From the NCBI GenBank assembly GCA_963723515.1, contig CAVRQT010000002.1:288001-352000 (forward strand): 64,000 nucleotides of DNA, written 5' to 3'. Below the pieces are notes generated by a model. It was not told the origin of the DNA. It saw only the letters and a program-made list of their open reading frames with translations, and did not search any database. A program made the position numbers and the translations under genes. The DNA is from Vulcanimicrobiota bacterium (lineage in GTDB: Bacteria; Vulcanimicrobiota; Vulcanimicrobiia; Vulcanimicrobiales; Vulcanimicrobiaceae). Positions 11,366 to 28,276 of the stretch are shown in pieces. Numbering within the stretch: position 1 is the stretch's first letter; every line of letters begins with the position of its first letter.

Positions 11366-12134
11366 GCATCAGCCGCGGTTTTGTTAGCTCGAGCACGATG
11401 ATCCACGCATACTTGCGCAGCCCAGGAAAAAACCTGAATAAGCGAGCGTCCACATCGTTCAGACGCTCGACAAGTTTACCCGAGAACGACTTACCAAGCA
11501 GCGGCAGTGCGAGCAGGGCAGTTAAGTAATAATACGTGATATCGATGCTTGCGAACGCGTCTTGTGCGTACGTCAAATCTTTCTCGAGCAGCGGATGCTC
11601 ATCCGGCGTTCGTTCCGCGGGAGTAATCCGCCGGTAGAGATTGATAAACGGATTGTATCCGAGCGGTTCCAAGAACAGCGCGCGGCCGTCAGGCGCCAGA
11701 ACACGCGCAATCTCTTTGAATGCACGAGTCGTATCCAAGTGGTGCAGGATTGCTCCGCCACAAACGATTTCAAACGAACCATCCGGGAATTCCAGCGTTT
11801 CGGCGTCCATCTGATAGAAACGCGCGTTGTCGATTCCCAGTCGTCGAGCATTAGCTTTCGCTTTCTCGACAGCGACGTCAGATAGGTCGATCCCGGTGAT
11901 GATCGCGCCGTGCTTCGCAAGCTCAAGGACGTTTGCACCGCTGCCGCAACCAATCTCGAGAACCCGTTTGCCGCGACATTCTGCCAAGAGCCGCGAGCGA
12001 TGATACCGGTGTGAACGCCGCGTGATTCCGTAAAAGCGATCGACCCGGCCCCGCGCGGAGTTGTCCGAGGCAAAGCGCTCGTTTTGCAGCTGCCGTTCGC
12101 GGATTTTTCTTTCTTCCATAACTGCTTTCGTCAT
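11352..12134 (-). CDS. Class I SAM-dependent methyltransferase
   Basis: VLEIGCGSG motif I, GIDLS, MDAE, ILHHLD, RVLAPDG. Confidence 0.9.
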   Translation of the reverse strand: MTKAVMEERKIRERQLQNERFASDNSARGRVDRFYGITRRSHRYHRSRLLAECRGKRVLEIGCGSGANVLELAKHGAIITGIDLSDVAVEKAKANARRLGIDNARFYQMDAETLEFPDGSFEIVCGGAILHHLDTTRAFKEIARVLAPDGRALFLEPLGYNPFINLYRRITPAERTPDEHPLLEKDLTYAQDAFASIDITYYYLTALLALPLLGKSFSGKLVERLNDVDARLFRFFPGLRKYAWIIVLELTKPRLMHAIP

Positions 12135-13747
12135 CGGACCGCCTCCCGATCGCGTTTCAACAACCGGCGCGGGCGCGATGCTAATCGCGCTGCCGCCTTC
12201 TCACGTTCACGACGCAACACGTACGGCAGACGCCGCAACGTTAGATACTGTCGCTTTCCATCGATCACGCAGACATCTCGGTCCCATGACAATGTATGCG
12301 TTCCAGCCGTATAGGGGCGCAAATTATGCGGCAGCAACGTCGCAACGATCTCTTCCGCGAAATCGTCAGGCGTCAGTTGCAGGATTCGATTAATGCGCAG
12401 CGCGCCACCGTAAGTAGTCGCGCAGTCCTGAGATGGTCGATACAGCTGCCCTTGATGAAAGAAAGGCTTGCCGGCCGGACGCGCTGATGTGATGTCGCTC
12501 TTGATCGGATTGCGCCCATGGGGTTGCCATACTCCGGTTAGCCTATCTGCATAGAACGCAAAGAGATGCAGATTGGAGTTACTGCTGCTCGAAGTGCAAA
12601 ATAGCCACCATCGACCGTCGTGTCTAAACAGCGTGCTGTCGCAAGCATCAAACCCTTCGATCAGCGTGCACACGCGCGCCCATTCATATGGAAATGACGT
12701 CGCCCGATAAAGCTCAACGCAATTCTTTTCGGCGCTCTCCGGCACGCAATAATAAACATCCGAGTGCTTGAGCAGAAACGGGTACGAGAGGTGGGAGGGC
12801 TCTTGCATAACCGGTCTTTGGTCGCGTGCAACGCCTCCGGAGATCTCAAAGGCGTCAATGTGGCCGCGATTGGCGCGCCGGTCAAGCGATTCGCAAAGGA
12901 CGAACGTCTTGCCGTCGCTTGAGCCGACCATCGGGTCGGCATAAAACGGATGCCGCTCATTCCAATGCAACCAGCGAACCGAGGGCCGGTAGCCGGAAGT
13001 CAGAAAGTCCTCAGGTGTTGCATTCGCGATGATGCCGATGTTCCAATCGACCTCCGCGAACAAATGGCGCACGGCTCGGCGCCAGAGTCGTTGAGTCAGA
13101 CGCGCCGGCGCACTCAACATCGCTCTTAAGGGAAGCGCACGGCGCGCCTCCCACGGAATCGCCGTATCGAACGATTTGCCGGCCCACTCTTGTGCGCTCC
13201 ATGCGGCCCATTGCGCGCAGGCCTGAAGAATCGGATCTAAATCGCGCAGCCGCAGCGGCAGATTGAATCGAGCGGAGCGCAGGACGCGCGCGCTTCCGTT
13301 AGCGAGGCCAACGACAAGCGCGATATCGAGCGTTCGTGCACCGGCCGCAAATTCGCGCCAGGTGATAGAGCGATCGATCGTCTTGGATCCACGTGTTTGA
13401 AACGACCAAATACCTAAAGGGAAACGCTGACCGTCGCCATCGCTCGGACCACCGCTAAAGTCGAGCAGGAAATCGAATTCACCGGCGCCGAGCTCAGTCA
13501 CGGCGGAAAGCTCTTTGACGCCCTCGATTTCAACGAAGCTTAGCGCACCGCTTTTCGGAGCGGCATGCCATGGGACTCTCGCAGCTCGGTCGTGCTTCTT
13601 GCAAAAGAGGGCGACGTTCATTCCCGGCGTCTCAAGCAAGGCGTTGATGCACCGTTCTTGCCAGACGGCTATTTGCGGTCTCTCAACGAGCACGGCGCAA
13701 CGCAATGCGGTCGGCGCGTTCGCTTTAGGCCGCGGATATATCGGCAA
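12131..13747 (-). CDS. Glycosidase-like beta-propeller protein (GINT1 N-terminal-like) with degenerate N-terminal domain
   Basis: FYADP, HLSYPFL, YCVPES, DSTLF, ARPAG, RPSQDC..YG and HTL repeats, typical of five-bladed propeller proteins in EPS clusters. Confidence 0.7.
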   Translation of the reverse strand: MPIYPRPKANAPTALRCAVLVERPQIAVWQERCINALLETPGMNVALFCKKHDRAARVPWHAAPKSGALSFVEIEGVKELSAVTELGAGEFDFLLDFSGGPSDGDGQRFPLGIWSFQTRGSKTIDRSITWREFAAGARTLDIALVVGLANGSARVLRSARFNLPLRLRDLDPILQACAQWAAWSAQEWAGKSFDTAIPWEARRALPLRAMLSAPARLTQRLWRRAVRHLFAEVDWNIGIIANATPEDFLTSGYRPSVRWLHWNERHPFYADPMVGSSDGKTFVLCESLDRRANRGHIDAFEISGGVARDQRPVMQEPSHLSYPFLLKHSDVYYCVPESAEKNCVELYRATSFPYEWARVCTLIEGFDACDSTLFRHDGRWWLFCTSSSSNSNLHLFAFYADRLTGVWQPHGRNPIKSDITSARPAGKPFFHQGQLYRPSQDCATTYGGALRINRILQLTPDDFAEEIVATLLPHNLRPYTAGTHTLSWDRDVCVIDGKRQYLTLRRLPYVLRREREKAAARLASRPRRLLKRDREAVR

Positions 13748-14996
13748 TTTCTTTTCCGTATCCGCGACCGAGGGTATAGCACTCGAAGCCGGCCGCCTGC
13801 CAGAGACGAGCCGAGAAAAAGTTGCGAGTGTCGATCAGGACTCGTGCGCGCATCCGTTTGCCGACATCCAAAGGTGAGAGCGCGCGAAATTCTTCATGAT
13901 CGGTCAGCAAGACGATCGCCGAGGCGTCTTGAACAGCGGCTTGCAACGTCTGAAGCGGCGAAGAGAATCGCGTTGCGATCGGATCGCAAATGGCAACAGA
14001 GTACCCTCGCTCTTGGAGAAGCGAGCAGATTGCGCGCGTCGGCGTTTCACGGGTGTCGTCAACGTTGGCTTTATAGGAAGCCCCAAGTAATGCTATCTTC
14101 GTCCGCGGCGGAGTGAATCGCTCGATCCGCCGCACGACGATGTGCGGCATGCGCTCGTTGATGCGCCGTGCCGTCTGAATGAGTTCCGTTACAAACGGGT
14201 TCGCGTTGGATAGGAAATGCGGGTCGACGGGTATGCAATGGCCGCCGACACCGGGACCAGGGGAAAGGATGTTTACGCGCGGATGTGCATTAGCCAAGCG
14301 GATCGCTTCCCACACGTCAACATCGAGCTCTTCCCCGAGCAATGCAAGTTCGTTCGCGTATGCGATGTTGATATCGCGATAGGTGTTTTCGACGACCTTG
14401 ACGAGCTCCGCAGTCAGACAATCGGTCAGCTCGACATTGCCCCGTACAAACGTCGCATATAGGCGCGCGGCGGCAGCCGCATCGCTTGGTTTACGTCCGC
14501 CGATGACGCGCGGATTCGAACGTAGCTCGTTGATGATATCCCCAGGTATGACACGCTCTGGAGCATGCACGATGCTGACAGTGTCGGGATCTCGTCCCGC
14601 CCGCTGCACCGCGCCGGCAAGAATTCGTTCGGTCGTACCGGGCGGCACCGTCGACTCTAAGACAACGAGATCATCGTCCTTGAGCAGCGATGCAATCGCT
14701 TCGGCTGTTTCTTCAACGTGGCGAAGGTCCGGCTTGCGCTCCCGCGTCGGCGTCGGAACGCAAATGACATAAGCATCCGCGGATTGCAGCATATCAACGA
14801 CTCGCAGCCGGCCGCTCTGCAAGCCTTCTAACGCAATGGCACGCACATCGGGATCCGCCGTGGTGGCGCAATTTTGGCGCAGCGCGCGGCGAACTTCGGG
14901 ATCGGCGTCGTAACCGCTAACTTCAAAACCGGCGCCGGCGAACATGGCCGCCGTTGGTAACCCGATGTAGCCGAGGCCTACGATCGAAATTTTCAC
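13725..14996 (-). CDS. wecC: Nucleotide-sugar dehydrogenase (UDP-ManNAc dehydrogenase-like)
   Basis: GLGYIGLP, CVPTP, ESTVPPGTT, ENTYRDINIA, PGPGVGGHCIPVDP, YKANVDDTRETP. Confidence 0.88.
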   Translation of the reverse strand: MKISIVGLGYIGLPTAAMFAGAGFEVSGYDADPEVRRALRQNCATTADPDVRAIALEGLQSGRLRVVDMLQSADAYVICVPTPTRERKPDLRHVEETAEAIASLLKDDDLVVLESTVPPGTTERILAGAVQRAGRDPDTVSIVHAPERVIPGDIINELRSNPRVIGGRKPSDAAAAARLYATFVRGNVELTDCLTAELVKVVENTYRDINIAYANELALLGEELDVDVWEAIRLANAHPRVNILSPGPGVGGHCIPVDPHFLSNANPFVTELIQTARRINERMPHIVVRRIERFTPPRTKIALLGASYKANVDDTRETPTRAICSLLQERGYSVAICDPIATRFSSPLQTLQAAVQDASAIVLLTDHEEFRALSPLDVGKRMRARVLIDTRNFFSARLWQAAGFECYTLGRGYGKEIADISAA

Positions 14997-14998
14997 GG

Positions 14999-16243
14999 TT
15001 ACGCTTTCATCTCGGCCAGCACGCCGGAACGCTCCTCAAGCATCGCCGGTCGCCGGAGCAGCGCAGAGAGAACCGCCGCCGTTTGACGAGCGTCGTATTG
15101 CTCTGCGACGCGTTGTCGCGCCTGGAGACCCAGCGAAGAGCCGCGATTTGCATCGCGAGCTAACGTAATGATCGCATCCGCAAGTGCGCCGCCGTTACCT
15201 TGCGGAACGACGATGCCACATGATCCGTCGAGCAACTCTGTTACGCTGCCCGAGTTCGTTGCAATACACGGGAGCCCGACGGCCATCGCCTCCATCAGCG
15301 CGACCGGGATGCCTTCCATCTGATCTTCACGCTCGATGCTCGGCAAGACGGCGGCGTCGAACATGCCCGCCTGAAGTTGACGAAGCAGCTCGCGATGCGG
15401 CACCTCCGAGAGGATCGTCACGACCGATGAAAGCCGATGCTTTCGAATCAGCGCTGCGATCGCTGACTTTAACGGCCCGTCACCCGCAAGAAAGCAGCGC
15501 ACCGAATAGCCGGCGTCCCGAACCTGCGCAAGCGCTTCAATTAGAATCTTGTGCCCCTTGATCGGCACGAACGCCGCGGCACACAGCAGCGTAAGCGGCC
15601 GATGGCGCGCTGCCAGCGGATACGCCGCTCGTTCAGGCGGTACGCGAACACCCAGATGTAAAGCGACTGAACGCTCCCAATGGACGACCCCGATCCGCTT
15701 GCGATAGTCGGAAAGTCCACGGCGGGAGATCACGCGGGTGAAGGAAGCAGATTTCGCTTTTGCGTGTGCTAGGTTGTCCTCGTAGATGTCCCAGCGGTGC
15801 GCGGTTGAACTCCACGGCTTACCGGCGAGTTGTGCAGCGATGTATGCGACCGTGGACGGCGTCGAGAGCCAATACGAGTGAATGTGATCGATGTTCTCGC
15901 GACGGACGATGTCAGCCACGGCAAGCGCCTTCGGAAAGATGGCGAGGTTTTTCAGGCGCACAGTGAAGCGCGCTTTGGGCGCGATGATAGAGCGCAGTGC
16001 GCGCAGGACCGCGCGGGGCCGCGAACAGCACATTTGGATCGTGCGGCCGTACGTGCGCAGTGAGATCAGCGGCAAGCGGAAAACTTTCGCCGGCAAATCG
16101 GGATAGCGCGATTGCCGGCGCGGCGGCGACGTTGGAATAATTGTGAGCTCTTCTATGTACTCCGAGAGCGCACGGATTTCGGCTTCCAGATACGGCTCTT
16201 TCGGTCCGAATGGAAACTTTGCGGAGATAATTGCGATCTTCAC
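14999..16243 (-). CDS. Glycosyltransferase family 4 (WcaL-like)
   Basis: IDHIHSYW, TAHRWDI, EGIPVALMEAMAVG. Confidence 0.9.
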   Translation of the reverse strand: MKIAIISAKFPFGPKEPYLEAEIRALSEYIEELTIIPTSPPRRQSRYPDLPAKVFRLPLISLRTYGRTIQMCCSRPRAVLRALRSIIAPKARFTVRLKNLAIFPKALAVADIVRRENIDHIHSYWLSTPSTVAYIAAQLAGKPWSSTAHRWDIYEDNLAHAKAKSASFTRVISRRGLSDYRKRIGVVHWERSVALHLGVRVPPERAAYPLAARHRPLTLLCAAAFVPIKGHKILIEALAQVRDAGYSVRCFLAGDGPLKSAIAALIRKHRLSSVVTILSEVPHRELLRQLQAGMFDAAVLPSIEREDQMEGIPVALMEAMAVGLPCIATNSGSVTELLDGSCGIVVPQGNGGALADAIITLARDANRGSSLGLQARQRVAEQYDARQTAAVLSALLRRPAMLEERSGVLAEMKA

Positions 16244-16274
16244 CTGAGGCGGTCACGAACATCAGCGAAATTCA

Positions 16275-17690
16275 CTATACGGCCCGGTGAAAGAGAAATT
16301 CGGCAGCGGTCTTGCAGATCACCGAGATGTCCATGAAGACCGACCAGTGTTCAACGTAGAACAGATCGAACGCAAGTTTCTCGCCTGCTGCGGATGGCTC
16401 CAGGACCCGTTTCATATGCACCTGAGACCATCCGGTGATGCCGGGCTTGACGACGTGGCGTTCATCGTAGTGCGTCAGCGTCAAGCGAAACATCTCAACG
16501 AAAAACGGTCGCTCGGGTCGTGGACCGACGATCGACATTTCGCCGCGAAGTACGTTGAAGAGTTGAGGCAGCTCGTCCAAACTTGTCCGGCGTAACAGCG
16601 CACCAACGCGCGTGACGCGACCGTCACCGGCCTTTGCCCACGTCGGGCCGCTCGCTTCTTCCGCTTCGCGTCTCATCGAACGAAACTTGAGCATCACAAA
16701 GGAGCGGCCGTTTTGACCGATCCGCTCCTGACGAAACAAGATAGGGCCGCGGTCTTCCAACCATATCGCGGCTGCAATGCAGCCCATGAGCGGCAAAGCA
16801 ATCGCGGTAGTGATTGCAGAAAAACCAAGATCGATCGTCCGCTTGAGGACCCGCGCATGCAACGTGCACGCTCGCTTCGGGCGCGGTACGACAAGCGGCT
16901 GATCACCGATCTGCTCAAGATAGAGCGCGAAACCGTTCGCCGAAACGCGCGGGGCCGCAAAGGCGACGGCAATCTTTGCCCGTCTTGCGAGATCTAAGAT
17001 TGCCGCGATCGAATCTTTTTCGGGAACACCCGCAAAGACGATACGGTCGGCGCCCCAGCGGCGCGCCTCTGCGATCGCAAGCGCCGGCGACGCCTGGTCT
17101 TGGACGCGCAGCGTTTCAACGCGCTCGACGGATCGCAGCGATGCATCAAGAGCGTACGCGTCATCACTCTGTCCTACGACGGCGACACGATGCGGTCGTC
17201 GCAGATGCGGCGCGTCAACCAGCGCGTGCGATATCGCTCGGAATGCACCTACGAGTGGTACCGCAAGAAACAGCGTGATGAGAAGAACGGCGCGCGACGT
17301 CGAGATTGCGGGAAATAACGAGAAAACGGCAACTTGCGGAACGATCGTCAAACAAAGAGCGGTGACGACATAGTAAAACTCGTCCCGCGAGTGCTGAGCA
17401 AAGCTAACGTGGTACAGCCCTAGGCGCGCGAAAATCAGAATACAGACGAAGGCTCCGACGAGAGCAGAGACGAGCACGCGGCCGTAGTTGAGATCTGCAC
17501 TCCAACCGTGGACGACGATGACGCTGGCAAGAAACGTAGCGAAGAGAAACGCCGAAGCGTCGCCAAAGAGCAGCGTCAGGGTCCGTTCAGAGCTGTACAG
17601 AAGCGGCGGCCCTTTGGAACGCATCGTTTGGGGCGCAGCATTGCCAGCCACCGACGATACAGCAGAATCGCCGGGGCGTGAAACATCCAT
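16275..17690 (-). CDS. Priming undecaprenyl-phosphate sugar phosphotransferase (WcaJ/WbaP family)
   Basis: KRTIDL, FRQERIG, KFRSM, RRTSLDELPQLFNVLRGEMSIVGPRP, VKPGITGWSQV; four N-terminal TMs. Confidence 0.93.
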   Translation of the reverse strand: MDVSRPGDSAVSSVAGNAAPQTMRSKGPPLLYSSERTLTLLFGDASAFLFATFLASVIVVHGWSADLNYGRVLVSALVGAFVCILIFARLGLYHVSFAQHSRDEFYYVVTALCLTIVPQVAVFSLFPAISTSRAVLLITLFLAVPLVGAFRAISHALVDAPHLRRPHRVAVVGQSDDAYALDASLRSVERVETLRVQDQASPALAIAEARRWGADRIVFAGVPEKDSIAAILDLARRAKIAVAFAAPRVSANGFALYLEQIGDQPLVVPRPKRACTLHARVLKRTIDLGFSAITTAIALPLMGCIAAAIWLEDRGPILFRQERIGQNGRSFVMLKFRSMRREAEEASGPTWAKAGDGRVTRVGALLRRTSLDELPQLFNVLRGEMSIVGPRPERPFFVEMFRLTLTHYDERHVVKPGITGWSQVHMKRVLEPSAAGEKLAFDLFYVEHWSVFMDISVICKTAAEFLFHRAV

Positions 17691-17818: not shown

Positions 17819-18622
17819 TTAAGGATACGCGATGAGTTCTTGATCGTAGTAGTCGGCGGTCGCCCCATTCACAATTGCCAGGCCGGCCCACTTGACCTTC
17901 GGATTCAGCAGATTGGTAGAGTGCGTTGCGAGCCCATCGCGCGCCGCCGGTCCTTCCGCGAGAAACGCGGACTCGATGTCGGACCAATTCGCGCCGTTGG
18001 CGACGGCGATATTCTCATAATCTTGACCGATACCAAAGAAACCGAAATAGCGTTCCCACGGCTCCTTGCCGCGCCGGTCAACGTGTCTAAGATAGCCGTA
18101 TCGCTCCATTTCGGCGGCGTGGTCGCGCGCGGCAAGCAACGCCGCCTCATCCATCGCTACGGGAGCAACATGGTGCGCCTCGCGATCCCGATTGACGCGC
18201 GCAAGCCACTTGTGTTCATCAGCACTCAATTTGCTGAGGGCAATAACGCGTCCGATGTTCCCGAGCGATGTGTCAACGATTCCGTGGAATGCGGCGTAGA
18301 TCGCGTGCGGGCAGTTCACGACCAGCAACACTTGTGCGCGGCCACTTAGAGCGGCGGAATAGGCGCCATCGCGCCGGGTTCGCATTCTTGCAAACGCTGG
18401 CGCGCCATTTTCAGGAAGAGCTTCAACGCTCGCGCCCGCGATTGGGCGTCCGGAATCACGATCCACGATCTTCCCGATAACGGGCACATCAGCCGCGTTC
18501 GCGCATCGCGCGCCGCCGAGGACTGCTGCAGTTAGCACAGTCGCGCAGGCCAGCGCCCGCAACGACGTCAGCCTCCGGGGCCGCCGTGGACGCTCTGCGG
18601 AGCCTTCAGTGCGTACACGCAT
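17819..18622 (-). CDS. Secreted protein: carboxypeptidase-regulatory-like Ig domain + CAP (SCP) domain
   Basis: Signal peptide (ANA-A), GKIVDRDSGRPIAGASV, VNRDR..H, AARDHAAEM, H, ENIA, HSTNLLNP. Confidence 0.8.
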   Translation of the reverse strand: MRVRTEGSAERPRRPRRLTSLRALACATVLTAAVLGGARCANAADVPVIGKIVDRDSGRPIAGASVEALPENGAPAFARMRTRRDGAYSAALSGRAQVLLVVNCPHAIYAAFHGIVDTSLGNIGRVIALSKLSADEHKWLARVNRDREAHHVAPVAMDEAALLAARDHAAEMERYGYLRHVDRRGKEPWERYFGFFGIGQDYENIAVANGANWSDIESAFLAEGPAARDGLATHSTNLLNPKVKWAGLAIVNGATADYYDQELIAYP

Positions 18623-18802
18623 GGGGACTTTTGGCCTAAACCCGTAGGGCATACACAGGGAAGGTTGGGACCTTTGGGCTAAATGCCCTCGCAGATCACC
18701 TTTTCGTTCGTTTCCAATTTTAAGGAAGACGGCAGGAGAACGCCCGCACCGGCGGGCACAGTCGTGGGGTAAAGGGACTAAAGACCTAGTATTTTAGTAC
18801 TT
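18623..18802. promoter_or_regulatory. Cluster of NarL/DosR-like boxes in divergent promoter region
   Basis: GGGGACTTTTGGCCTA (18623-18638), TGGGACCTTTGGGCTA (18666-18681), AGGGACTAAAGACCTA (18773-18788), followed by the imperfect palindrome AGTATTTTAGTACT. Confidence 0.6.
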
Positions 18803-18841
18803 ACCTCGGAGAGTCTAAACCTCGGCAGAAAGGCATTTTTG

Positions 18842-18997
18842 ATGAAGAAGACGCTGGCGCTCGCTACCCTTGCACTCTTGGCTTCAGTCTTCGCAGGCTG
18901 TTCAGGCGGCACAGGGACGTCCATGATTCCGACTGCGCCGCAGCAGGCGCAGGCGCACCAAGGCGATGCGCTGGGGGGACAGCCGGCTCACAGATAG
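18842..18997 (+). CDS. 51-aa small lipoprotein / candidate signalling propeptide
   Basis: Below the ORF-track cutoff. MKKTLALATLALLASVFAG-CSGGTGTSMIPTAPQQAQAHQGDALGGQPAHR*; basic N-terminus, hydrophobic core, lipobox FAG-C, AAAGG SD. Confidence 0.8.
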   Translation: MKKTLALATLALLASVFAGCSGGTGTSMIPTAPQQAQAHQGDALGGQPAHR

Positions 18998-19050
18998 CGC
19001 TGGCGCGCACAGCGCGACCCGGAATTGAACCCGTCGCAAGTCTTTTGCCC

Positions 19051-19091
19051 GAGGCGCCTAGTACGATCGTACCAAGGCGCTTCTTGTATTT
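19051..19091 (+). terminator. Intrinsic terminator after small lipopeptide gene
   Basis: GAGGCGCCT-a-GTAC-gatc-GTAC-ca-AGGCGCTTC followed by TTGTATTT. Confidence 0.6.
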
Positions 19092-19113
19092 GCTGCTAGA
19101 CTAACCGCAGCAT

Positions 19114-20667
19114 ATGCTGCCTCTAACCTTGCTGCCCGAATCGCCCTCGGAAGTCCTTACAGAGGTCCGCAAATCGATGCGTGCCGGAGACTTCTCGTGC
19201 TGTCACGAGATGCTGGACACACTCCCGAATGATCCGTGCACGACACTCCTACGTAGTAGGGTCTTGATTCGCGAAGCGAAACATGCGGCAGCAATCCAAC
19301 ATCTTCTCGAAGTCGAAAGCCAAGTTCAAGATGGCGACCGCGCTCTATGGTGTACTCTGCTCGGAGCAGCGCATGCTTATAGCGGACAGTTTGCTGACGC
19401 TCAAGCCCATTTTGAACGAGCCGCTGCATTGCCGTCAGATGATGACGTCCACCTGGACTTAGTGTACTATCGCGGCACATTAGCCCGATTGCTGCGCGAT
19501 TACGATGCGGCTCTTTCTGCCGCCGCCGTCCTGGAAGCATCAGACGAACACACGTATCGCGGACTCGGCTTCACGCTTCACTCCTGGGTTGAAGTGAATC
19601 GCGGAAACGCCCAAGGCCAGTCGAAGCTACTTGTCCGTGCGCTCGACGCCTTCGAAAAATCGCGCGAACGCGACGAGTACCTGGTGGGCCGCACGTTAAT
19701 GACGCTTGGGGCTCTCTGTCGCGACACCTTTTTGGCCAGCGCCACAAAACGCCTAAAGTCCTCGGCGGAACGAGTTCGGTGGGGGTCGAGCCTGGCGCTG
19801 GACCACTTCCAGGTGACGCGATTTCTCGCTTCGATCGAAGCGCTCGCAGGTAACGAACTTGCGGCTTTTCGTCTGCTCAAGCTCTCCGCCTCGCTAGCAC
19901 CATCGAACGTTTGGAAAGTTCTGCCGTTGCTTGATCGCGCAAAGTTAGCGCGTAGCAATGGCGAAGAAAGTTTCGCCCTTGACCAGCTGTACGAAGCACA
20001 TGCGTTAGCCTCTGAGGTGAACTGGGTTGAAACGCATAACGAAGAGCGCTGTGCGCTTCTCATCCTCGGCGAACTTTTCGCGTCGACTGACCCGCGAATC
20101 GCAACGCAGTATCTTGAAAAGTTTCACGCGCTGCCACCTGTCGATGCGAATCTCGCTTATGCCTCGGATCGGCGCGTCAGCGCCTTCGCCGCGTACTCCG
20201 CCGGCATGGCGCATAAGCAGCTCGGCAATGGCTCCGTCGCGCTGGCCGCGCTTACAGACGCCTGGGATACCTTTGAGGAGTTCGCATATGGCTGGCGGTC
20301 GGCACTCGCCGCTGCAGCGATTTACGAGCTGACCGGTGCCCGCACATGGCTCACCCGCGCACAGCACGCGATTGCGCCGTGGCCGAACAGTTGGATCGCG
20401 CGAAAAGTCGTGCGGCTGGACGCTGAAAAGCCTCCGACTGCTAAACTGACGTCAATGCAGCACCGAATCTACGATTCGCTTCTTGCCGGTCACTCGACGA
20501 AAGAGATTGCTGAAAAGTTGGGACGCAGCCCCAACACGATACGCAATCATATCGCGTCCGTCTTCTTGGCGTTTCGCGTCAAGTCGCGCGCGCAGTTGCT
20601 CTCCACGAGCTTTGCACTTTCCAACGTGAGGTCCGCCGAACAAGCCTACACTCAAGCATCCGCCTAA
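19114..20667 (+). CDS. TPR-like repeat protein with C-terminal LuxR/GerE HTH (transcriptional regulator)
   Basis: Helical repeats such as LLGAAHAYSGQFADAQAHFERA; C-terminal LTSMQHRIYDSLLAGHSTKEIAEKLGRSPNTIRNHIASVFLAFRVKSRAQL. No receiver or ATPase domain. Confidence 0.88.
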   Translation: MLPLTLLPESPSEVLTEVRKSMRAGDFSCCHEMLDTLPNDPCTTLLRSRVLIREAKHAAAIQHLLEVESQVQDGDRALWCTLLGAAHAYSGQFADAQAHFERAAALPSDDDVHLDLVYYRGTLARLLRDYDAALSAAAVLEASDEHTYRGLGFTLHSWVEVNRGNAQGQSKLLVRALDAFEKSRERDEYLVGRTLMTLGALCRDTFLASATKRLKSSAERVRWGSSLALDHFQVTRFLASIEALAGNELAAFRLLKLSASLAPSNVWKVLPLLDRAKLARSNGEESFALDQLYEAHALASEVNWVETHNEERCALLILGELFASTDPRIATQYLEKFHALPPVDANLAYASDRRVSAFAAYSAGMAHKQLGNGSVALAALTDAWDTFEEFAYGWRSALAAAAIYELTGARTWLTRAQHAIAPWPNSWIARKVVRLDAEKPPTAKLTSMQHRIYDSLLAGHSTKEIAEKLGRSPNTIRNHIASVFLAFRVKSRAQLLSTSFALSNVRSAEQAYTQASA

Positions 20668-20676
20668 GGCAAATCT

Positions 20677-21366
20677 TTGAAAATGCTTCCACGTGAGCGC
20701 CTCATCGACACGGGGCAGCTCGATCGTTCGCTCCTGTGCTATCGTCCCGTTGTCGGTTTCTTGCCGCGCGGGCGCTATGAACTTGCGCGTGCGCTGCTGC
20801 CGGCCGAACGCGCTGAACGCGCTCTCGAAATCGGGTACGGCAGCGGCATCTTTATGTCCGAATTGGCTCAACATGCGCGTCAGATCTTCGGCATTGACAT
20901 GCACTCTGAACAGCCCGCGGTTAGGGACGCGCTTGCGCAGGAGCGAATCACCGCGCATCTGGAGTCCGGCAACGGTGCCCACTTGCCGTTCCCGGATAGC
21001 TACTTCGATGTCGCTGTCTCGACGAATGGGTTGGCGTCGGTCTCCGACGTCGGCGCAAGCTGTTTTGAAATCGACCGCGTCCTAAAAGAGGACGGCCGCG
21101 TTATCGTTGTAATTCCGGCGTTCGCGTGGTTCGCTGAAGCGGCATCGCAAGGGGTGTTTGGAAAGAACGTAAGACAACATTCACCCAATAGCCGACAATT
21201 ATTGATGCCGATGCTTCGGCGCCACTTTGAGGTAGAAACCTCGCTGAGTTTTCCCAAATGGCTTTCGAACGCATTGCCGCTCTACCGCGCTCTTCGGCTG
21301 CGAAAACTCGGGTCAAGCACCGCGCCGGACCTGTGGCATGAAGACCCCTTAAGAACGTCCGCTTAG
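20677..21366 (+). CDS. Class I SAM-dependent methyltransferase
   Basis: ALEIGYGSG, GIDMH, LPFPDSYFDV, RVLKEDG. Confidence 0.85.
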   Translation: MKMLPRERLIDTGQLDRSLLCYRPVVGFLPRGRYELARALLPAERAERALEIGYGSGIFMSELAQHARQIFGIDMHSEQPAVRDALAQERITAHLESGNGAHLPFPDSYFDVAVSTNGLASVSDVGASCFEIDRVLKEDGRVIVVIPAFAWFAEAASQGVFGKNVRQHSPNSRQLLMPMLRRHFEVETSLSFPKWLSNALPLYRALRLRKLGSSTAPDLWHEDPLRTSA

Positions 21367-21379
21367 CGGACGCTCCTGT

Positions 21380-22117
21380 TTATGCGGTCAAAGAGGCCCG
21401 GATCCAATAGATCGAGACCGGTGCGCAGGAGTCCCGGCGAAGAACGGCCGCTGCGGCGACATGGCACGCACTGGGACGCGAGATGAAGAATTGCCAGTTC
21501 CCAATGCCGACGGGCCGACCGTTTTCGCGCTGTCCGACCATCAATCGTTCGGGCACGTTCCCCAATCCGTCTCCAAGCGCCTTAACGAACGCCTCCTTCA
21601 AAACCCACTGTTCGAAAAATCGCGCAGCGCGCTGAGGCCGTCCCAAACTTTCAATAAACGCCGCCTCAGGAGCTGTGAGGAAATGTCGTGCGAGCAGCGC
21701 GGTATCAATCGGCCGAGACGTATCTTCGGCATCCACGCCCACTTCGCCGGCTCGACTGACGGCGCAAACGACCAAATTGTCAGTGTGCGTCAGGTTGAAG
21801 CGCAGGGACGCGAAACGCTCCGGCGCGGCGACTGCCGGCTTGCCTTGCGCACCGATCCTAAAACGCCATTCGGAGGGGTTGACGCCTGTGTACCTCGAGA
21901 GCATTGCACGGCATAACGCATGTCCAGCGAGATACTGTTCGCGCATTTCGTCCGTCTCAAACCGCTCGTATTGCGAACGCTCGTCATCTGAAAGCCGAGA
22001 CAACCACGTATTACGCGACGCGCGCGAACGCACTTCGCTTGGCTGCAACTGCCACGCATGCACGGCGCCGAGAAGCGCATCCCACGCACTCGATCTATTC
22101 GAAACTGGCGTCGCCAT
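21380..22117 (-). CDS. Sfp-type 4'-phosphopantetheinyl transferase
   Basis: GKP, FNLTHT, VGVDAE, WVLKEAFVKALGDGL. Confidence 0.93.
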   Translation of the reverse strand: MATPVSNRSSAWDALLGAVHAWQLQPSEVRSRASRNTWLSRLSDDERSQYERFETDEMREQYLAGHALCRAMLSRYTGVNPSEWRFRIGAQGKPAVAAPERFASLRFNLTHTDNLVVCAVSRAGEVGVDAEDTSRPIDTALLARHFLTAPEAAFIESLGRPQRAARFFEQWVLKEAFVKALGDGLGNVPERLMVGQRENGRPVGIGNWQFFISRPSACHVAAAAVLRRDSCAPVSIYWIRASLTA

Positions 22118-23196: not shown

Positions 23197-24326
23197 AGCG
23201 TGGCGTCACCATCGAAAAGTGAAGGGTCCCAAAACTGCGGCTGTCGCAGCTCCGCGTCGAGTTTCGCATTCGCTGCACGATAAAAAAATATCGAGTTCGG
23301 GAGCTTTTGGCGATACGGAGCACACTGGTCAAAAGCCCGCATCTTCGGCACACCGACGCCGACGTTTTGCAGTACATAACACCCTTCTGCGGCGCAGCAT
23401 CGAAGTGCCGCGCGAAGAAAAGACGGCAATAGGTCGGCCCCCAGCTCAAGGCTCTGGTAATCCACAACAGACATGCGACAGCCGCCCGCGGTTGGTTGCC
23501 GCCGCAGAACGCAATAGCCGCGTAGCCGTCCGCTGTTCGATGCGGTGAAGATCAACAATCGGTTCCTGCGAATAGCGCCCTCAAAATGCCACATGAGGGC
23601 GCGGCTGCTACGCTCGGCCAACAATTTATCGTAATTTTCGCGCACGAGTTCTTCCCAAAATGTGTCGAACCGGGCGTCGAACGTGTCCGTACGTTCAACG
23701 ACGAGAGAACGCTCGGATTTCGGGAGCGTTTTGCTGGAGAGCGCGTGCTTTAGCCGTAGCGAACCAGCGGCGGGATATGCGAGCAACGGCGCCAGCGGCA
23801 CACGATATTTTTTAAGCGCTCGCTCGGCAAATGAAAGATACCCTGTTATAAAGTACGACATCATGTCCCATCGGCCGAGCGGAATGGGTCCGTACAACTG
23901 GCTGAGCGTCGGGAACGCGGCGCGGCCGACCGTAGTACTGATTAACAGATCGACGGGTTGCTCAAAATACTCCTCGATCAGTTGCAGGGCATATCCCCGA
24001 TACGGAGCTTTGACGCACCACGCAGCGCTGGCACCCGCAACCAGATCGCTTCCCCGCCATTTGTAGCGTATCGGAATCGTCTCCATCGAGCCGACGATCT
24101 CGTGTTTGGCCGTTTCTAATACCCAGCCGATTGGCGAGTCTTTGCCTAACTGCCACCAGATCGGGTTGTCAACCCAACGATGACGCCAGTCCTCGAACGA
24201 TGGAGGTTCGAGCGCATATTCTTGGAGCAGCGTGCGAATGTCTTCGTAATCATCAAAGCGCATCGGACGCAGGTCCGGCGCATGAAGCAACGCATCAATA
24301 TGTCCGCTTACTGCGGGCGAACTCAT
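23193..24326 (-). CDS. GNAT-fold-like protein, paralogue 1
   Basis: EIVGSM..IP, AWCVKAPYRGYALQLI resembles GNAT motif A; translationally coupled to the P450. Confidence 0.7.
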   Translation of the reverse strand: MSSPAVSGHIDALLHAPDLRPMRFDDYEDIRTLLQEYALEPPSFEDWRHRWVDNPIWWQLGKDSPIGWVLETAKHEIVGSMETIPIRYKWRGSDLVAGASAAWCVKAPYRGYALQLIEEYFEQPVDLLISTTVGRAAFPTLSQLYGPIPLGRWDMMSYFITGYLSFAERALKKYRVPLAPLLAYPAAGSLRLKHALSSKTLPKSERSLVVERTDTFDARFDTFWEELVRENYDKLLAERSSRALMWHFEGAIRRNRLLIFTASNSGRLRGYCVLRRQPTAGGCRMSVVDYQSLELGADLLPSFLRAALRCCAAEGCYVLQNVGVGVPKMRAFDQCAPYRQKLPNSIFFYRAANAKLDAELRQPQFWDPSLFDGDATL

Positions 24327-25562
24327 GCGTTCGCTTCGTATAATAGGCGTAGCGACTTTAAGCCGCGCAAGCCCAGGTTCTCACGCCAGTCCAGTTTTTG
24401 ATTCGTGAGCTCAAGCCGCGGGAATCGCGCCAAAAGCGTTTCAAAGGCAATCTGCCCTTCCAAACGCGCCAGCGGCGCTCCGAAACAGAAGTGAGCAGCC
24501 CACCCGAATGCCAAATGTCGATTGTCTGCTCGCTCGAAATCGAGCTCGTCTGGGTCAGAGAATCGCTCGGGGTCGCGATTGCCGGCGGCCATAACCGCAA
24601 TCACCGCGTCGCGCTTACGGATCTGCTTTCCGCCGAGCATGACATCGTTGGGCGCAAGGCGCGCGGTGTGCTGGCTCGGGCTTTCGTAACGCAGTAGCTC
24701 CTCAACGGCCGCCGGTACAAGTGCCAGGCTCTGCGCGCAGTTTTGCAAGATGATCGGGGTTTCGCAACAGCGTGAGAATGCCGTTGCCGATGAGATTTGT
24801 CGTTGTTTCTTGGCCGCCGACCATGGTAACGATGCAATTCGCGATGATCTCTTCATCAGTTAAGCGATCACCGTCGACTTCGCTCGACATCAACGCTTGA
24901 ATTAAGCCGTCGCGAGGAAATTCGCGTTGCTCGCGAATTGCGTTTTCGAAATATGACGTGAGGCGCTCCACCGCGCTCAATACGCCTTCGAGCTGATCCG
25001 GATTGTGCTGAAAATTTCCCAGCATACCGGCAAACGTGGCGGACCAATCCTTGAGTTTGCGATGGTCCTGAACCGGAACGCCGAGCATCTCTGCCGTCAC
25101 GATCGCGGGCAGCGCTTCCGCGAAGTCGCCGAGCAACTCCATTTCGCCCGTTCCACGCAGCACGATGCAATCGAGCAACTGTGTCGCTATTCTTTCGATG
25201 TGGCGCCGCAACTCACGCACACGGGCCGGCATGAACGCCGGAGCGGCAAGCTTGCGTAAGCGAGCGTGCGCCGGTGGGTCCAGAAAGAGCATTTGCTTGA
25301 CCATCACCTTCGCGATCGGGCCGACATGTGGGGCACCCAAGGCCTCAAAAAATTCGGGCGAGGGCGTGCGGTCGGCGGAAAAGCGCGTCAGTACGGTGAT
25401 GACGTCGTCATACCGTGTGACGACCCAGCTATGCAGGTAAGGATCCCAATGCACGGGATCTTCCGTCCGCAATCGACGATAGAGCGGGTAGGGGTCTGCA
25501 AGAACGGCGGGATCGAGCAGATGGTACAGACTCAGCGGAGCTGCCGCCTCGATTGCAGCCAT
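24323..25562 (-). CDS. Cytochrome P450 (frameshift at about 24720)
   Basis: LDPPAHARLRK, I-helix VGGQETT, ExxR (EELLR), heme loop FGWAAHFCFGAPLARLE, split across ORFs 24702..25562 and 24323..24856. Confidence 0.93.
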
Positions 25563-25575
25563 TGATGCGTTCCGG

Positions 25576-27372
25576 TTACCGGGCGCTGATCAGGCCCGCA
25601 ACTTCATTCGCAAGCTCGCGCACGGTTGGCGCGATGAAGATCCGCCGAAGAGGCAATTGCACGCCAAACACTTCGCGAATGCGCGCGACAAGCTGGGCGC
25701 CGAACATCGAATGGCCTCCGATCATAAAGAAGTTTTCATTTGCGCCGATCGACGGGCGACTCATCAGAGAGGCGACCAACTGGCCAATCTCATGCTCAAG
25801 GCCGCTTAACCCACCATTCGTGGCAGAGGCGTCGAGCAACAGGTTCTCAGCGCAAGGAGCGGGCAGCGCCGTCTTGTCCACCTTTCCGTTCCGCATCAAC
25901 GGCAATGCCGCAAGCGAAACAAAAAACGCTGGAATCATGTAGTCCGGCAATTGATCTGCGAGATCTTCGCGCAATTGCTTCTCCGTTAACCGCGCGCCCG
26001 GCGCGGCGACGACATACGCGACCAGCGCGCGTCCCCCCGGAGCGACATCTTTGATTGCAACCGCCGCGGCCAAAACGTTGGAGGATCGGTTCAGGCACGC
26101 CTCGATCTCGCCGAGCTCAATACGGTGTCCGCGGAGTTTCACTTGATCGTCGAAGCGACCCAGAAATTCGATCTCACCGTTATCGAGCAACCGTACGCGA
26201 TCGCCGGTTCGATACAAACGGACCGACTCTCCCGAAGCAGCGATGTAGGTGATAAACTGCTTTGCGGTCAGCTCCGGCATGTTGCAATAGCCACGTCCAA
26301 CCACCGCACCGCCGATGCACAACTCGCCGGGATCGCCTTTTGCTACCGGGCGCAAGGAAGCGTCGAGAATGAAGGCCGTCGCGTTCGTGATGGGAAGGCC
26401 AACGGAGGGCCGCCTTACTTCATTGCCTTCAGGTGCAACGATTCCAGAGGTTGATACGACCGTGCATTCCGACGGACCGTAGTTATTCACGACAGTGAAA
26501 GGCAGTCCGGGGGGCGGGCGCCGTTGGAGCGTATCACCGCCTGTCAACAGCAACCGAAGCGCAGTTTCACGGGGCCAATTGGCGGAAAAGAGTTGCTCGG
26601 CCAGTGCGGTCGCGACAAAAGCAATCGTGATCTGCTCGTCGATGAGCCACGCCTGAAGCGATTCCGAGGAGCGTCGGGTCGATTCATCTGCGATGTGCAG
26701 CGTTGCGCCGGCAGCAAGGTTCGGCCAGATCTCCCAGACGGCCGCGTCGAACCCGAGGCTTGCGAGTTGGCTTGCACGGTCTGCCGGCGTCACGGAAAAC
26801 GCAGACTCATGCCACGTAAGAAGATTGCAGAGGTTTGCATGGGTTATCTTGACGCCTTTGGGCTGGCCCGTCGAACCGGACGTGTAGATAATGTACGCGA
26901 GCGAGTCGTAATCGATCGGAGACTGCACGAACGGCTTCTCAGCGATGCCGTGAACTTGCTCGATTGCGATCAGCGGGCACGGTGCGCCAGCTAGCTCTTC
27001 AGCGAGCGGCGAAGCCGTTATTACGGCCACAGCACCCGCGTCCGTGAAGATCGACAATGCGCGCTTCAGCGGCGTTGAAGGGTCCAACGGCAAGTAAGCC
27101 GCGCCGCTCTTCAGTATCGCCAGCGCGGCAACGACAAACTCAGTGGACCGTTCGAGAAAGATTCCGACGCACCGTTCCGGTTTCGCGCCCGCCTTCTGCA
27201 GCAAAGCAGCAAGGCGGTTCGAGTCGTGTTCGAGATCGCGTCGGGTCAGTCGGCGGTTGACGTCGGCAACCGCGATACGATAAGGATCGGCCGCGGCATG
27301 TGAAGCGATCCGCTCTGGTATCGAATACCGCTTTGCCGTATCAGCGGCCGAGAGCACGCCGATCTCTTTCAT
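25576..27372 (-). CDS. Stand-alone NRPS-like adenylation-thiolation (A-T) didomain, Leu-type pocket
   Basis: YIIYTSGSTGQPKG, FDAAVWE, NNYGPSE, GELCIGG, YRTGD, GRFDDQVKLRGHRIELGEIE, NGKVDK, PCP FFMIGGHS. No C or TE domain. Confidence 0.95.
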   Translation of the reverse strand: MKEIGVLSAADTAKRYSIPERIASHAAADPYRIAVADVNRRLTRRDLEHDSNRLAALLQKAGAKPERCVGIFLERSTEFVVAALAILKSGAAYLPLDPSTPLKRALSIFTDAGAVAVITASPLAEELAGAPCPLIAIEQVHGIAEKPFVQSPIDYDSLAYIIYTSGSTGQPKGVKITHANLCNLLTWHESAFSVTPADRASQLASLGFDAAVWEIWPNLAAGATLHIADESTRRSSESLQAWLIDEQITIAFVATALAEQLFSANWPRETALRLLLTGGDTLQRRPPPGLPFTVVNNYGPSECTVVSTSGIVAPEGNEVRRPSVGLPITNATAFILDASLRPVAKGDPGELCIGGAVVGRGYCNMPELTAKQFITYIAASGESVRLYRTGDRVRLLDNGEIEFLGRFDDQVKLRGHRIELGEIEACLNRSSNVLAAAVAIKDVAPGGRALVAYVVAAPGARLTEKQLREDLADQLPDYMIPAFFVSLAALPLMRNGKVDKTALPAPCAENLLLDASATNGGLSGLEHEIGQLVASLMSRPSIGANENFFMIGGHSMFGAQLVARIREVFGVQLPLRRIFIAPTVRELANEVAGLISAR

Positions 27373-27542
27373 ACCCGCTCGGTCGCAAACAAATGGACGC
27401 ACATACGATCTTTAAAGTCGCACCTTTCCCACGACGCTTCCATTCCGGGCCTCTGCGTGCGTTTCTACGACTCTAAGAGAAAAAGCGCCGGTTGTAACCC
27501 GACGCACCTCCTACACCTTAGGGTAATTGGTAGCTATTGAAC

Positions 27543-27561: not shown

Positions 27562-28276
27562 CTATGCGAAGCCGCTCCTTATGGCGTGGACCGCGGCTTG
27601 CGAACGAGCGGAGATGTTCAGCTTTGAGAAAATGCGGCTCACGTGATTCTTAACCGTCTTCTCCGAGAGGGACAATCGAGCGCCGATCTCTTTGTTGGAG
27701 AGTCCCTTCGCGATCAGCGTAACGATCTCGATCTCACGTCTTGAGAGCTCGCACGCGTCGTTGCCGTCGTGCATCGTACGTCTGCGCAGAATACCGCCCG
27801 CAAGACGTGCATCTACGTAGGGATCGCCCTTTGCGACGACCTTAATCGCCTGGCGGAACTCCTGCGGAATGATGTCCTTCATGATATAGCCGCTCGCGCC
27901 GGCGTTGAGACAACGCTGCATCAGTTCGGGCTCGCTGCGGCCCGAAAGAATGCAGACCGCGACGGTCGGCAGCTCCTTGCGGCATTGTGAAACGAGCTCC
28001 GCGACATCCATCAGCGAATATCGGTCCGGCCCGGTGTGCTCGATATCGAGAATGATAACGTCCGGTCGCCGCGCTGCTAAGGCAGCGGAAGCGACAGAAG
28101 GCGCATCGCAGACCACCTGCAAGATCTGGGTCCGCGGCAAGCATCATGCTCAGCGCCTTTGAAAAAAGGCGCTGCGTTTCGATAATCGCCACTTTTACGG
28201 GACGCGCATGCTGGGTGTCCGCGTCGTGTACAAACGACGGAGCGTCGCGGCGCTGGTCAATGAGCGCGGTCGTCAA
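27562..28276 (-). CDS. NarL/FixJ-family response regulator (frameshift at about 28120)
   Basis: VKVAIIETQRLFSKAL joins RPDVIILD...GASGYIMKD...LSRREIEIVTLIAKGLSNKEIGARLSLSEKTVKNHVSRIFSKL. TTG start at 28276 after GGAG. Confidence 0.9.

Follow-up and report, generated by a model that had tools for sequence, protein, structure and literature searches.

A short unannotated gene and the regulator gene directly downstream of it, together occupying positions 18,842 to 20,667 of a 64,000-nucleotide stretch of Vulcanimicrobiota DNA (the window; G000:C2:288001-352000, from a 2.11-Mb genome in 4 contigs that is 88% complete), form a real, conserved and lineage-specific two-gene cassette whose pairing is not due to chance. 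On balance, and with modest confidence, we lean towards a peptide signal and its receptor as the function of this cassette, i.e., a secreted, often lipoprotein-type (poly-)pheromone precursor, a cytoplasmic receptor with tetratricopeptide repeats (TPRs) and a LuxR-type helix-turn-helix (HTH), and an autoregulatory box. The most likely reading of its origin is that a pair resembling the RRNPP peptide-receptor systems arose independently in a diderm bacterium.

The precursor gene lies at 18842..18997 on the + strand and encodes 51 amino acids, as supported by the open reading frame (ORF) list and by in-frame purifying selection. Its translation reads MKKTLALATLALLASVFAGC, then SGGTGTSMIPTAPQQAQAHQG, then DALGGQPAHR, and can be divided into a leader with a lipobox-like FAGC motif (residues 1-20, nt 18842-18901), a spacer (residues 21-41) and a single core, DALGGQPAHR, followed by the stop codon (residues 42-51, nt 18965-18994); HQGDALGGQPAHR is a longer form of this core peptide. 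The leader has a mean Kyte-Doolittle (KD) hydropathy of 2.21 over 15 residues and ends in ..ASVFAG-C20, in which the phenylalanine at -3 is atypical for a lipobox. A Shine-Dalgarno-like GAAAGG was read from the sequence at 18829-18834 (+), 7 nt 5' of the ATG, and GAAAGG at this position is nearly invariant in 32 aligned leaders of the sister clade. The missed small ORF with a lipoprotein-like signal, spacer and DALGGQPAHR tail, and its own Shine-Dalgarno sequence, were therefore present as the first-pass annotation had described them. Comparison of leader codons 1-23 with the orthologue at locus L072 gave a ratio of nonsynonymous to synonymous differences (pN/pS) of 0.18 in frame and of 0.90 and 1.70 when the two alternative frames were read, indicating that the reading frame is real and under purifying selection. 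The possibility that 18842..18997 is a spurious ORF was considered and rejected because the in-frame pN/pS is low and an upstream precursor recurs across homologous loci, as counted in both locus sets below. When relatives of the 51-aa protein (28-90 aa, shared words) were sought among 5.8 billion proteins, only the protein itself was found, and no NCBIfam model scored above its cutoff with the regulator or with any of three precursors. The sequencing runs listed for the stretch were small-share soil DNA runs, with no RNA data set among them. Precursors in public sets are annotated only as 'hypothetical protein', without a Pfam family.

Recurrence of a small ORF with an export leader next to homologous regulators had been proposed as the test of the pair, and such ORFs did recur. 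Loci were collected from 60 relatives searched with the regulator (six unpublished in the tally), from JGI metagenome contigs and from one-genome-per-species contigs; in the JGI contigs, the single regulator protein as query gave no match, but an alignment query did. Unpublished genomes enter genome tallies only, and no sequence-level claim rests on them. A precursor was called when an ORF of 25-260 aa on the same strand ended no more than 480 nt upstream of the regulator start and had a hydrophobic stretch near its N-terminus together with a tail that contained the motif [DE]-x(1-2)-G-G-x(0-2)-P or two or more exact copies of a 6-mer. The first set held 85 regulators with at least 400 bp of upstream sequence (16 more were too short). 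Removed beforehand were L017 and L031, which come from unpublished genomes, the duplicates L068 and L071, matches of fewer than 200 query residues and duplicate starts. An ORF meeting the rule was found upstream of 44 of the 85 regulators, compared with 0/85 when those regions were read antisense and 1/77 in downstream regions of the same length. The motif-free tandem criterion alone gave 29/85 against the same control counts of 0/85 and 1/77. About ten further precursors (L008, L012, L019, L032, L045, L046, L053, L067, L105 and L107) were recognized by eye or in a wider scan, including one that is convergent and downstream (L008), one at an assembly gap (L012) and one that is frameshifted (L019).

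The unchanged rule was also applied to a second set drawn from the species genomes, in which 67 of 77 loci were positive, all with a lipobox-like motif, while the controls gave 4/77 (antisense) and 0/76 (downstream). Three loci of this set were too short, and one positive, L193, looks like a wrong-frame call. The four antisense hits are expected, because repeat DNA yields repeats in any frame. Across the genome of the window, the rule picks out 19 of 3,202 small ORFs that have a hydrophobic N-terminus, and of these the window ORF alone is convincing. The two sets share 4 identical precursors, and their union comprises 106 distinct precursors. A different arrangement was seen at L021, L050 and L051 (L021:1-1383), where the regulator starts 15-31 bp after the gene for a protein longer than 330 aa, which has a carboxypeptidase-regulatory-like C-terminal part and the conserved tail G-[TV]-[ILV]-[QN]-D. 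This protein may be an alternative partner or peptide source in that clade.

The cassette is one of a large family of cassettes confined to a single lineage of Eremiobacterota, essentially the taxonomic family of the window, which public records label Baltobacteraceae or 'Candidatus Cybelea'; the public names on homologues are 'Candidatus Eremiobacteraeota bacterium', 'Candidatus Cybelea sp.', 'Vulcanimicrobiota' and 'Baltobacteraceae'. Its distribution was sampled in 200 genomes from across the phylum (one unpublished), counting full-length-type regulator matches with E up to 1e-15. Such matches were found in 96 of 113 genomes of this family, in 1/3 and 1/15 genomes of two neighbouring families, and in none of the 69 genomes from 18 other families of the phylum. 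Among 1.84 billion representative proteins, the regulator family has 845 members (representatives at 50% identity) at E up to 1e-30.

Most of the distinct precursors carry more than one core: 89 of the 106 have at least two copies, with a range of 1-19, a median of 4 and a maximum of 19. The single-tail peptide first taken as the general form did not hold up, since most are poly-precursors with a median of 4 cores and many are longer than 80 aa. The conserved core of the D-x-x-G-G-x-P type, on the other hand, does recur in precursors next to homologous regulators. In a logo of 273 distinct units, numbered relative to the G-G, D stands at -3 in 232, S at -2 in 186, V at -1 in 176 and H at -6 in 132; the G-G is followed by G in 223 and then by P/L and P/V. 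The family consensus is H-x-[LM]-D-S-V-G-G-G-[PL]-[PV], with a core length of about 8-11 residues. Most cores begin with D-[ST]-[VLIAT], the exceptions being D-A-L in the window and D-V-V or E-V-V in other cassettes; D-[ST]-[VLIAT] is also the form of the Bacteroidota O-glycosylation sequon. A lipobox-like motif was matched by regular expression in 90 of the 106 precursors, and the stricter [LVI][ASTVIG][GAS]C fits 83. A lipobox is thus common among the precursors without being universal, and several clades have only a short hydrophobic N-terminus.

The closest orthologous regulators, at L072 and L076, are 62% and 56% identical to the window regulator, and their precursors keep the leader (MKKTLALVTLALFASIFAGC and MKRFLALVGLLAMAGAFAGC). 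L072 has four DTLGGGPIHK units and L076 has five units of the DT[IV]GGxPL[HQ]K type, compared with the one C-terminal unit in the window. The sister clade, whose regulators are about 40% identical to that of the window, has LLGG-C leaders and 2-19 units of (H-x-L)-D-S-V-G-G-G-[PL]-[PV]. More distant clades have a short hydrophobic N-terminus without a cysteine and cores of the DTPGGPIP, ADSIGGPLT, DSMGGIPVG and xxxxPPY types. The frameshifted precursor of L019 (G016:C1) has its leader with the lipobox-like cysteine in one frame and three GLGGMPGG units across the other two, whereas L048, its paralogue in the same genome, is intact. At L071 (G005:C1:1630000-1639000), one precursor with seven NAGPLGGSGIGxHT units precedes three tandem regulator paralogues. 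The sister cassettes L027 and L058 (G031) each have about 14 tandem copies of units that lack GG, ETAGHISTL and SPAGINPI, and the layout of leader, tandem short units and regulator is kept despite replacement of the motif.

Repeats of this kind also allow a quite different explanation, in which the precursor is the regulated target of a local regulator: it would be an exported, often lipid-anchored repeat protein rich in Gly, Pro and His, serving in structure, at the surface or in metal binding, and the TPR-LuxR protein would sense another ligand, perhaps a small molecule as MalT does. We regard this, the main rival, as unlikely, for the following reasons. Among five orthologous precursors, invariant columns make up 78% of the cores and 70% of the signal peptide but 32% of the spacers and elsewhere, so that selection acts on an 8-residue core rather than on the whole unit. 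The spacers of these five vary in both sequence and length while the core is kept, a pattern of a poly-precursor in which the short core would be the functional unit and the spacers drift. The number of units varies freely from 1 to 19, and the one core of the window precursor forms its extreme C-terminus. There is no obvious reason why a structural repeat protein should need its own paralogous regulator for every variant, yet one genome has five cassettes, and the GG-less clades (L027, L058) keep the leader and short tandem units.

The regulator gene (19114..20667, +) begins 116 nt after the precursor gene and encodes 517 aa, with a TPR-like superhelix at about residues 11-420 followed by a C-terminal LuxR/GerE HTH. 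Pfam GerE matched residues 445-496 (E 1.9e-8, above cutoff), and Pfam TPR_1 alone remained below its cutoff. When a profile of 92 family members was searched against the PDB, consensus TPR proteins were matched over residues 8-187 (E 3e-40) and GerE (1fse) over residues 447-509 (E 4.5e-16). The Pfam scan found no receiver, ATPase or autoinducer-binding domain, and no transmembrane-like segment was found (maximum KD19 1.15). The AlphaFold2 model, computed from a 92-sequence alignment, is all-helical (predicted local distance difference score, pLDDT, 94.5; predicted TM score, pTM, 0.88), begins directly with the repeats, and shows about 22 repeat helices over residues 11-420 and then the HTH helices at 427-516. 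The regulator is a soluble TPR and HTH protein; Pfam, the profile search and the model agree with the first description of a 517-aa protein of TPR-like helices with a C-terminal LuxR HTH and without receiver or ATPase. Its start codon is uncertain: there is no Shine-Dalgarno sequence before 19114, alignment with the orthologues begins only at about residue 15, and another ATG in the same frame (M22) is at 19177.

A Foldseek search with the regulator model returned only generic TPR superhelices (OGT, SPY, APC) in the top ranks; the matches to RRNPP and MalT folds emerged only with VIA-align. The fold-comparison figures were 19.2 for phi105 Rap with its peptide, 18.5 for the OGT TPR domain, 18.2 for AimR, 17.0 for NprR-NprX and 13.0 for PlcR-PapR, and Z differences of 2-3 are not decisive for helical repeats. 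Judged from the model, the sensor domain resembles the RRNPP receptors and also the domain that precedes the LuxR HTH in MalT. Long LuxR proteins of the type of MalT and the large ATP-binding LuxR regulators (MalT/LAL type) are abundant in the genomes of these relatives, and the most economical origin for the regulator is a MalT/LAL-type protein minus its ATPase module. By that reading, the cassette works like an RRNPP system but stands outside that family.

A tree of 92 regulators (FastTree, with Shimodaira-Hasegawa-like support only) grouped the window regulator with its five closest protein hits, L072 and L076 (8 rows, support 100), and placed this group as sister to the DSVGGG clade (30 rows, support 100). 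Throughout the tree, each type of core is specific to its clade, in agreement with the expectation that the peptide tails would co-vary with the receptor. For example, the clade of L011, L014 and L015 has DSGG[AV]M[TP]G; that of L016, L020 and L022 has ...PPY; that of L012, L013, L103 and L108 has DT[LV]GGGPV; and that of L030, L033 and L070 has AD.GG..P. Cores can also switch between close receptors, as in L082 (NLVNGPAPGD) and L087 (LDSVGFGPV). Genome G032 has five cassettes with five different cores, and one contig carries two cassettes, with DSVGGGPPL and DVLGGGPVH units (L185, L223).

Two candidate cis elements were found on the + strand, one before each gene. Box 1, CTAGTATTTTAGTAC, at 18786-18800 is a candidate operator or core-promoter element upstream of the peptide gene, and Box 2, CTAGTACGATCGTAC, at 19058-19072 is a palindrome (GTACGATCGTAC) that lies inside a hairpin upstream of the regulator gene. 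Both are conserved in an alignment of the window with L072 and L076, where Box 2 reads CCTAGTACAAAAGGACC and CCCAGTACAAAAGTACTA, respectively; the letters TAGTATATTC name the candidate box as a landmark for the transcript 5' end. The pattern CTAGTA-N4-5-GTAC has exactly two matches in the 2.11-Mb genome, one before each gene, where 4.5 would be expected from base composition; within the window it likewise matches only these two sites, and shuffled sequences gave a mean of 0.48. A relaxed pattern gave no further site in the window and the strict pattern none in the genome, although degenerate sites would escape both. In 65 of 66 sister-clade cassettes, an equivalent box, TAGTATATTCGTAC, precedes the ATG of the peptide gene by 56-87 bp (by 22 bp in one, L187, where the start codon has probably been called too far upstream). 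The remaining 252,877 bp of sister-clade locus DNA contain two hits to TAGTATATTCGTAC. This box has GTAC half-sites on its flanks and a -10-like TATATT inside. Because it overlaps a likely -10 element, the box, a candidate target of the regulator, is compatible with either activation or repression. Between the two genes of the sister-clade cassettes, strict TAGTAC-N4-GTACTA occurs in 5/66 and GTAC-N4-12-GTAC in 16/66, compared with 10 hits in 253 kb elsewhere.

The terminator previously placed at 19051-19091 was supported in part. RNA folding predicts a terminator- or attenuator-like hairpin followed by the U-rich tract UUGUAUUUG at 19051-19083 (+), and the 121-nt stretch that holds it has a z of -2.27; however, a simple terminator scan did not list it, and it contains the conserved palindromic Box 2. 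In the orthologues, the sequence of Box 2 is conserved and the hairpin potential is weaker. Box 2 may thus be an operator instead of, or besides, a terminator. The letters of the extended -10 reported at 19094-19102, TGCTAGACT, are present, but a sigma-70 scan found no + strand promoter there. A short GC-rich hairpin just 5' of GAAAGG was observed in many precursor-gene leaders (e.g., L230:861-944, L009, L011, L015 and L030), with stems that differ. Over 109 such leaders, the median z was -1.73, with z < -2 in 47, and some folds pair the outer stem with the Shine-Dalgarno sequence. RNAalifold on 32 aligned leaders gave a weak consensus (-2.09 kcal/mol, 6 pairs), and the window leader has no such hairpin (z +0.24). 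The idea of a leader hairpin thus derives from single-sequence folds and does not apply to the window leader.

Taken as a signalling pair, the cassette would work as follows. The small gene would give rise to a precursor exported by a Sec-type leader, usually ending in a lipobox cysteine, and the functional part of the precursor would be the short core, in the window the single DALGGQPAHR. Extracytoplasmic proteases would cut out the core peptide or peptides, which would re-enter the cell, e.g., through one of many Opp-type transporters; G000 has 14 matches to SBP_bac_5 (OppA-type). The imported peptide would bind the TPR superhelix of the cytoplasmic regulator, and the LuxR-type HTH would then shift the occupancy of the CTAGTA-N4-5-GTAC boxes before the peptide gene and before its own gene, resulting in an autoregulatory, quorum-sensing-like loop. 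The export route, lipidation, cleavage sites, re-import, binding, sign of regulation and output genes are parts of this loop that we infer. Of the RRNPP-analogous system proposed in the first-pass annotation, the recurrent small ORFs and the clade-specific cores stood, whereas the lipobox was not universal, most precursors had more than one core, and the gating of neighbouring operons found no support.

Several observations weigh against this signalling loop. The motif rule was written after the first loci had been seen, which the tandem criterion and the second set mitigate but do not remove. About one third of the regulator homologues have no detectable precursor, and these include whole clades (L006/L089/L101; L021/L050/L051; L028/L029/L052/L054/L059/L064). 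The family profile search detected no sequence similarity of the regulator to any RRNPP receptor. Neither LspA (Peptidase_A8) nor Lgt was found by Pfam in the 88% complete G000, while LspA turned up in 22 of 25 relatives, the same genus among them (one unpublished genome in the tally). The precursors that have 10-19 copies and contain many histidines might just as well be repeat lipoproteins whose function is structural or metal-binding. The clade-specific cores are supportive but are not proof of recognition, because adjacent genes are inherited together. Finally, in a diderm the released peptide would have to pass the outer membrane twice.

Another reading keeps the parts but changes their purpose: in a cell-autonomous envelope relay, the precursor would report extracytoplasmic protease activity or peptide-uptake capacity, the peptide would stay in the periplasm before its return to the same cell, and the cell would sense the state of its envelope rather than cell density. 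The organism does appear to be diderm, in that Omp85/BamA is present in G000, and a lipobox would hold the precursor membrane-anchored in the periplasm. No dedicated outer-membrane exporter was suggested beside the cassettes among 40 flanking proteins scanned, and the gene for an S41 C-terminal processing protease adjoins one cassette (L039). That protease, however, is a neighbour only once among the 40 proteins, and several orthogonal cores per genome together with rapid core diversification are the pattern of pherotypes acting between cells, not of a housekeeping stress relay. We therefore consider such a relay quite improbable.

The surroundings of the window cassette were as first described, with an exopolysaccharide (EPS) cluster on one side and adenylation-thiolation (A-T) and P450 genes on the other. 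Upstream on the - strand lie an EPS/O-antigen-type cluster (7646-17690) and the divergent neighbour of the precursor gene, a secreted CAP-domain protein with a weak CarboxypepD_reg match (17819-18652). Downstream, a class I S-adenosylmethionine-dependent methyltransferase gene (20677..21366, +; Pfam Methyltransf_11, E 5e-16) begins 10 nt after the regulator stop and is possibly co-transcribed with the regulator. It overlaps the regulator stop in L072, the closest orthologue locus, and the arrangement is not conserved in other clades, so that its membership in the unit is uncertain. The - strand further downstream carries a phosphopantetheinyl transferase (PPTase; 21380-22117), two overlapping cytochrome P450 ORFs (24323..24856 and 24702..25562), an A-T didomain gene (25576-27402) and two LuxR/GerE proteins, a receiver-GerE response regulator (27562-28140) and a short GerE-only protein (29546-29962). 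The two P450 ORFs match positions 316-433 and 81-303 of the profile, respectively, and the gene at 24323-25562 looks split by a frameshift, which would make it a pseudogene or point to an error in the assembly.

The first-pass annotation had also suggested that the cassette plausibly gates the EPS and A-T/P450 operons beside it. Control of these genes is unsupported because the box was found nowhere else in the window or genome, in searches that would miss degenerate sites; the neighbours, moreover, differ between cassettes, with only the regulator constantly paired among heterogeneous flanking genes, and polysaccharide genes occur near three cassettes (L011, L044 and L047). The two nearby LuxR/GerE proteins are more obvious candidates than the cassette for local control of the A-T/P450 cluster. 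The methyltransferase that follows the window cassette, and the nearby PPTase, P450 and A-T didomain genes, would also suit precursors of modified or antimicrobial peptides, i.e., ribosomally synthesized and post-translationally modified peptides (RiPPs) or bacteriocin-like multi-core products, with the regulator as the transcription factor of the cluster. Multi-core precursors are known among RiPPs, and the GG motifs recall double-glycine processing sites. Nevertheless, no modifying enzyme or transporter is conserved beside the cassettes, where the 40 flanking annotations are heterogeneous, and the leaders are of the Sec/lipobox type and not RiPP recognition leaders, which makes this origin very improbable.

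Several known systems share parts of the cassette. MalT and LAL regulators of the STAND class likewise have a superhelical sensor followed by a LuxR HTH, but their N-terminal STAND/AAA ATPase is absent from the window regulator; MalT, moreover, responds to ATP and maltotriose rather than to a peptide encoded by an adjacent gene. LuxR receptors of the acyl-homoserine lactone type share the C-terminal GerE/LuxR HTH and the palindromic box before the signal gene, an autoinduction layout, whereas the window regulator lacks an autoinducer-binding domain and its putative signal is ribosomally encoded. Enterococcal sex pheromones are cut from lipoprotein precursors and sensed by a cytoplasmic RRNPP receptor; there, however, the pheromone derives from the signal peptide, and the lipoprotein gene is unlinked, whereas the cassette units lie in the mature C-terminal part and their gene is linked to the receptor gene.

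Among the RRNPP systems, the HTH of NprR, PlcR and AimR is N-terminal and of the XRE type; the cassette differs from NprR-NprX, PlcR-PapR and AimR-AimP in its C-terminal GerE/LuxR-type HTH and has no detectable sequence relationship to them. More generally, the RRNPP effector lies N-terminal to the TPRs, either as an XRE-type HTH or as the 3-helix bundle of Rap, a feature absent in the window regulator, whose sole DNA-binding domain is the GerE HTH at 445-496. Rap proteins lack a DNA-binding domain and work through response regulators, and their phr gene is located after rap. Compared with Rap-Phr, the cassette has a C-terminal LuxR HTH, the peptide gene first, mostly lipobox leaders, up to 19 copies and a diderm host outside Bacillota, and no sequence similarity is detectable. 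One survey defines RRNPP systems by a small propeptide that is secreted through Sec and lies adjacent to the gene of a TPR-containing receptor about 250-500 aa long, five criteria in all (PMC10075063). If its hydrophobic leader is counted as a secretion signal, the window pair agrees with four of these five and nearly with the fifth, its receptor having 517 aa. Tandemly duplicated pheromones within phage Rap-Phr propeptides are described in another report (PMC11343458).

Imported-peptide quorum sensing with cytoplasmic TPR receptors is regarded as a speciality of Firmicutes. The surveys have been limited accordingly: RRNPP_detector was applied to Firmicutes and viruses only (PMC10075063), and RRNPPA is treated as a Firmicutes family (PMC9765709). 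Searches of a collection of open-access full texts yielded no paper that reports such a system for Eremiobacterota or for any diderm. The wider claim, that the cassettes form an independent diderm peptide 'language' with hundreds of orthogonal cassettes, up to five or more per genome, up to 19 copies per precursor and a receptor derived from a MalT-like protein, and hence the first RRNPP-type quorum sensing outside Bacillota and their mobile elements, is one that we put forward tentatively, at a little short of an even chance. Some 2 kb of DNA suffices to give the putative cognate peptide, the receptor and the candidate operator, all of which are testable in vitro or in E. coli without culturing the host. 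If the cassette works as proposed, peptide/TPR signalling evolved at least twice, a second receptor architecture exists in which the sensor repeat is followed by a LuxR HTH, and testable peptide-receptor pairs would be available for a globally common, barely cultured phylum of soil and peat.

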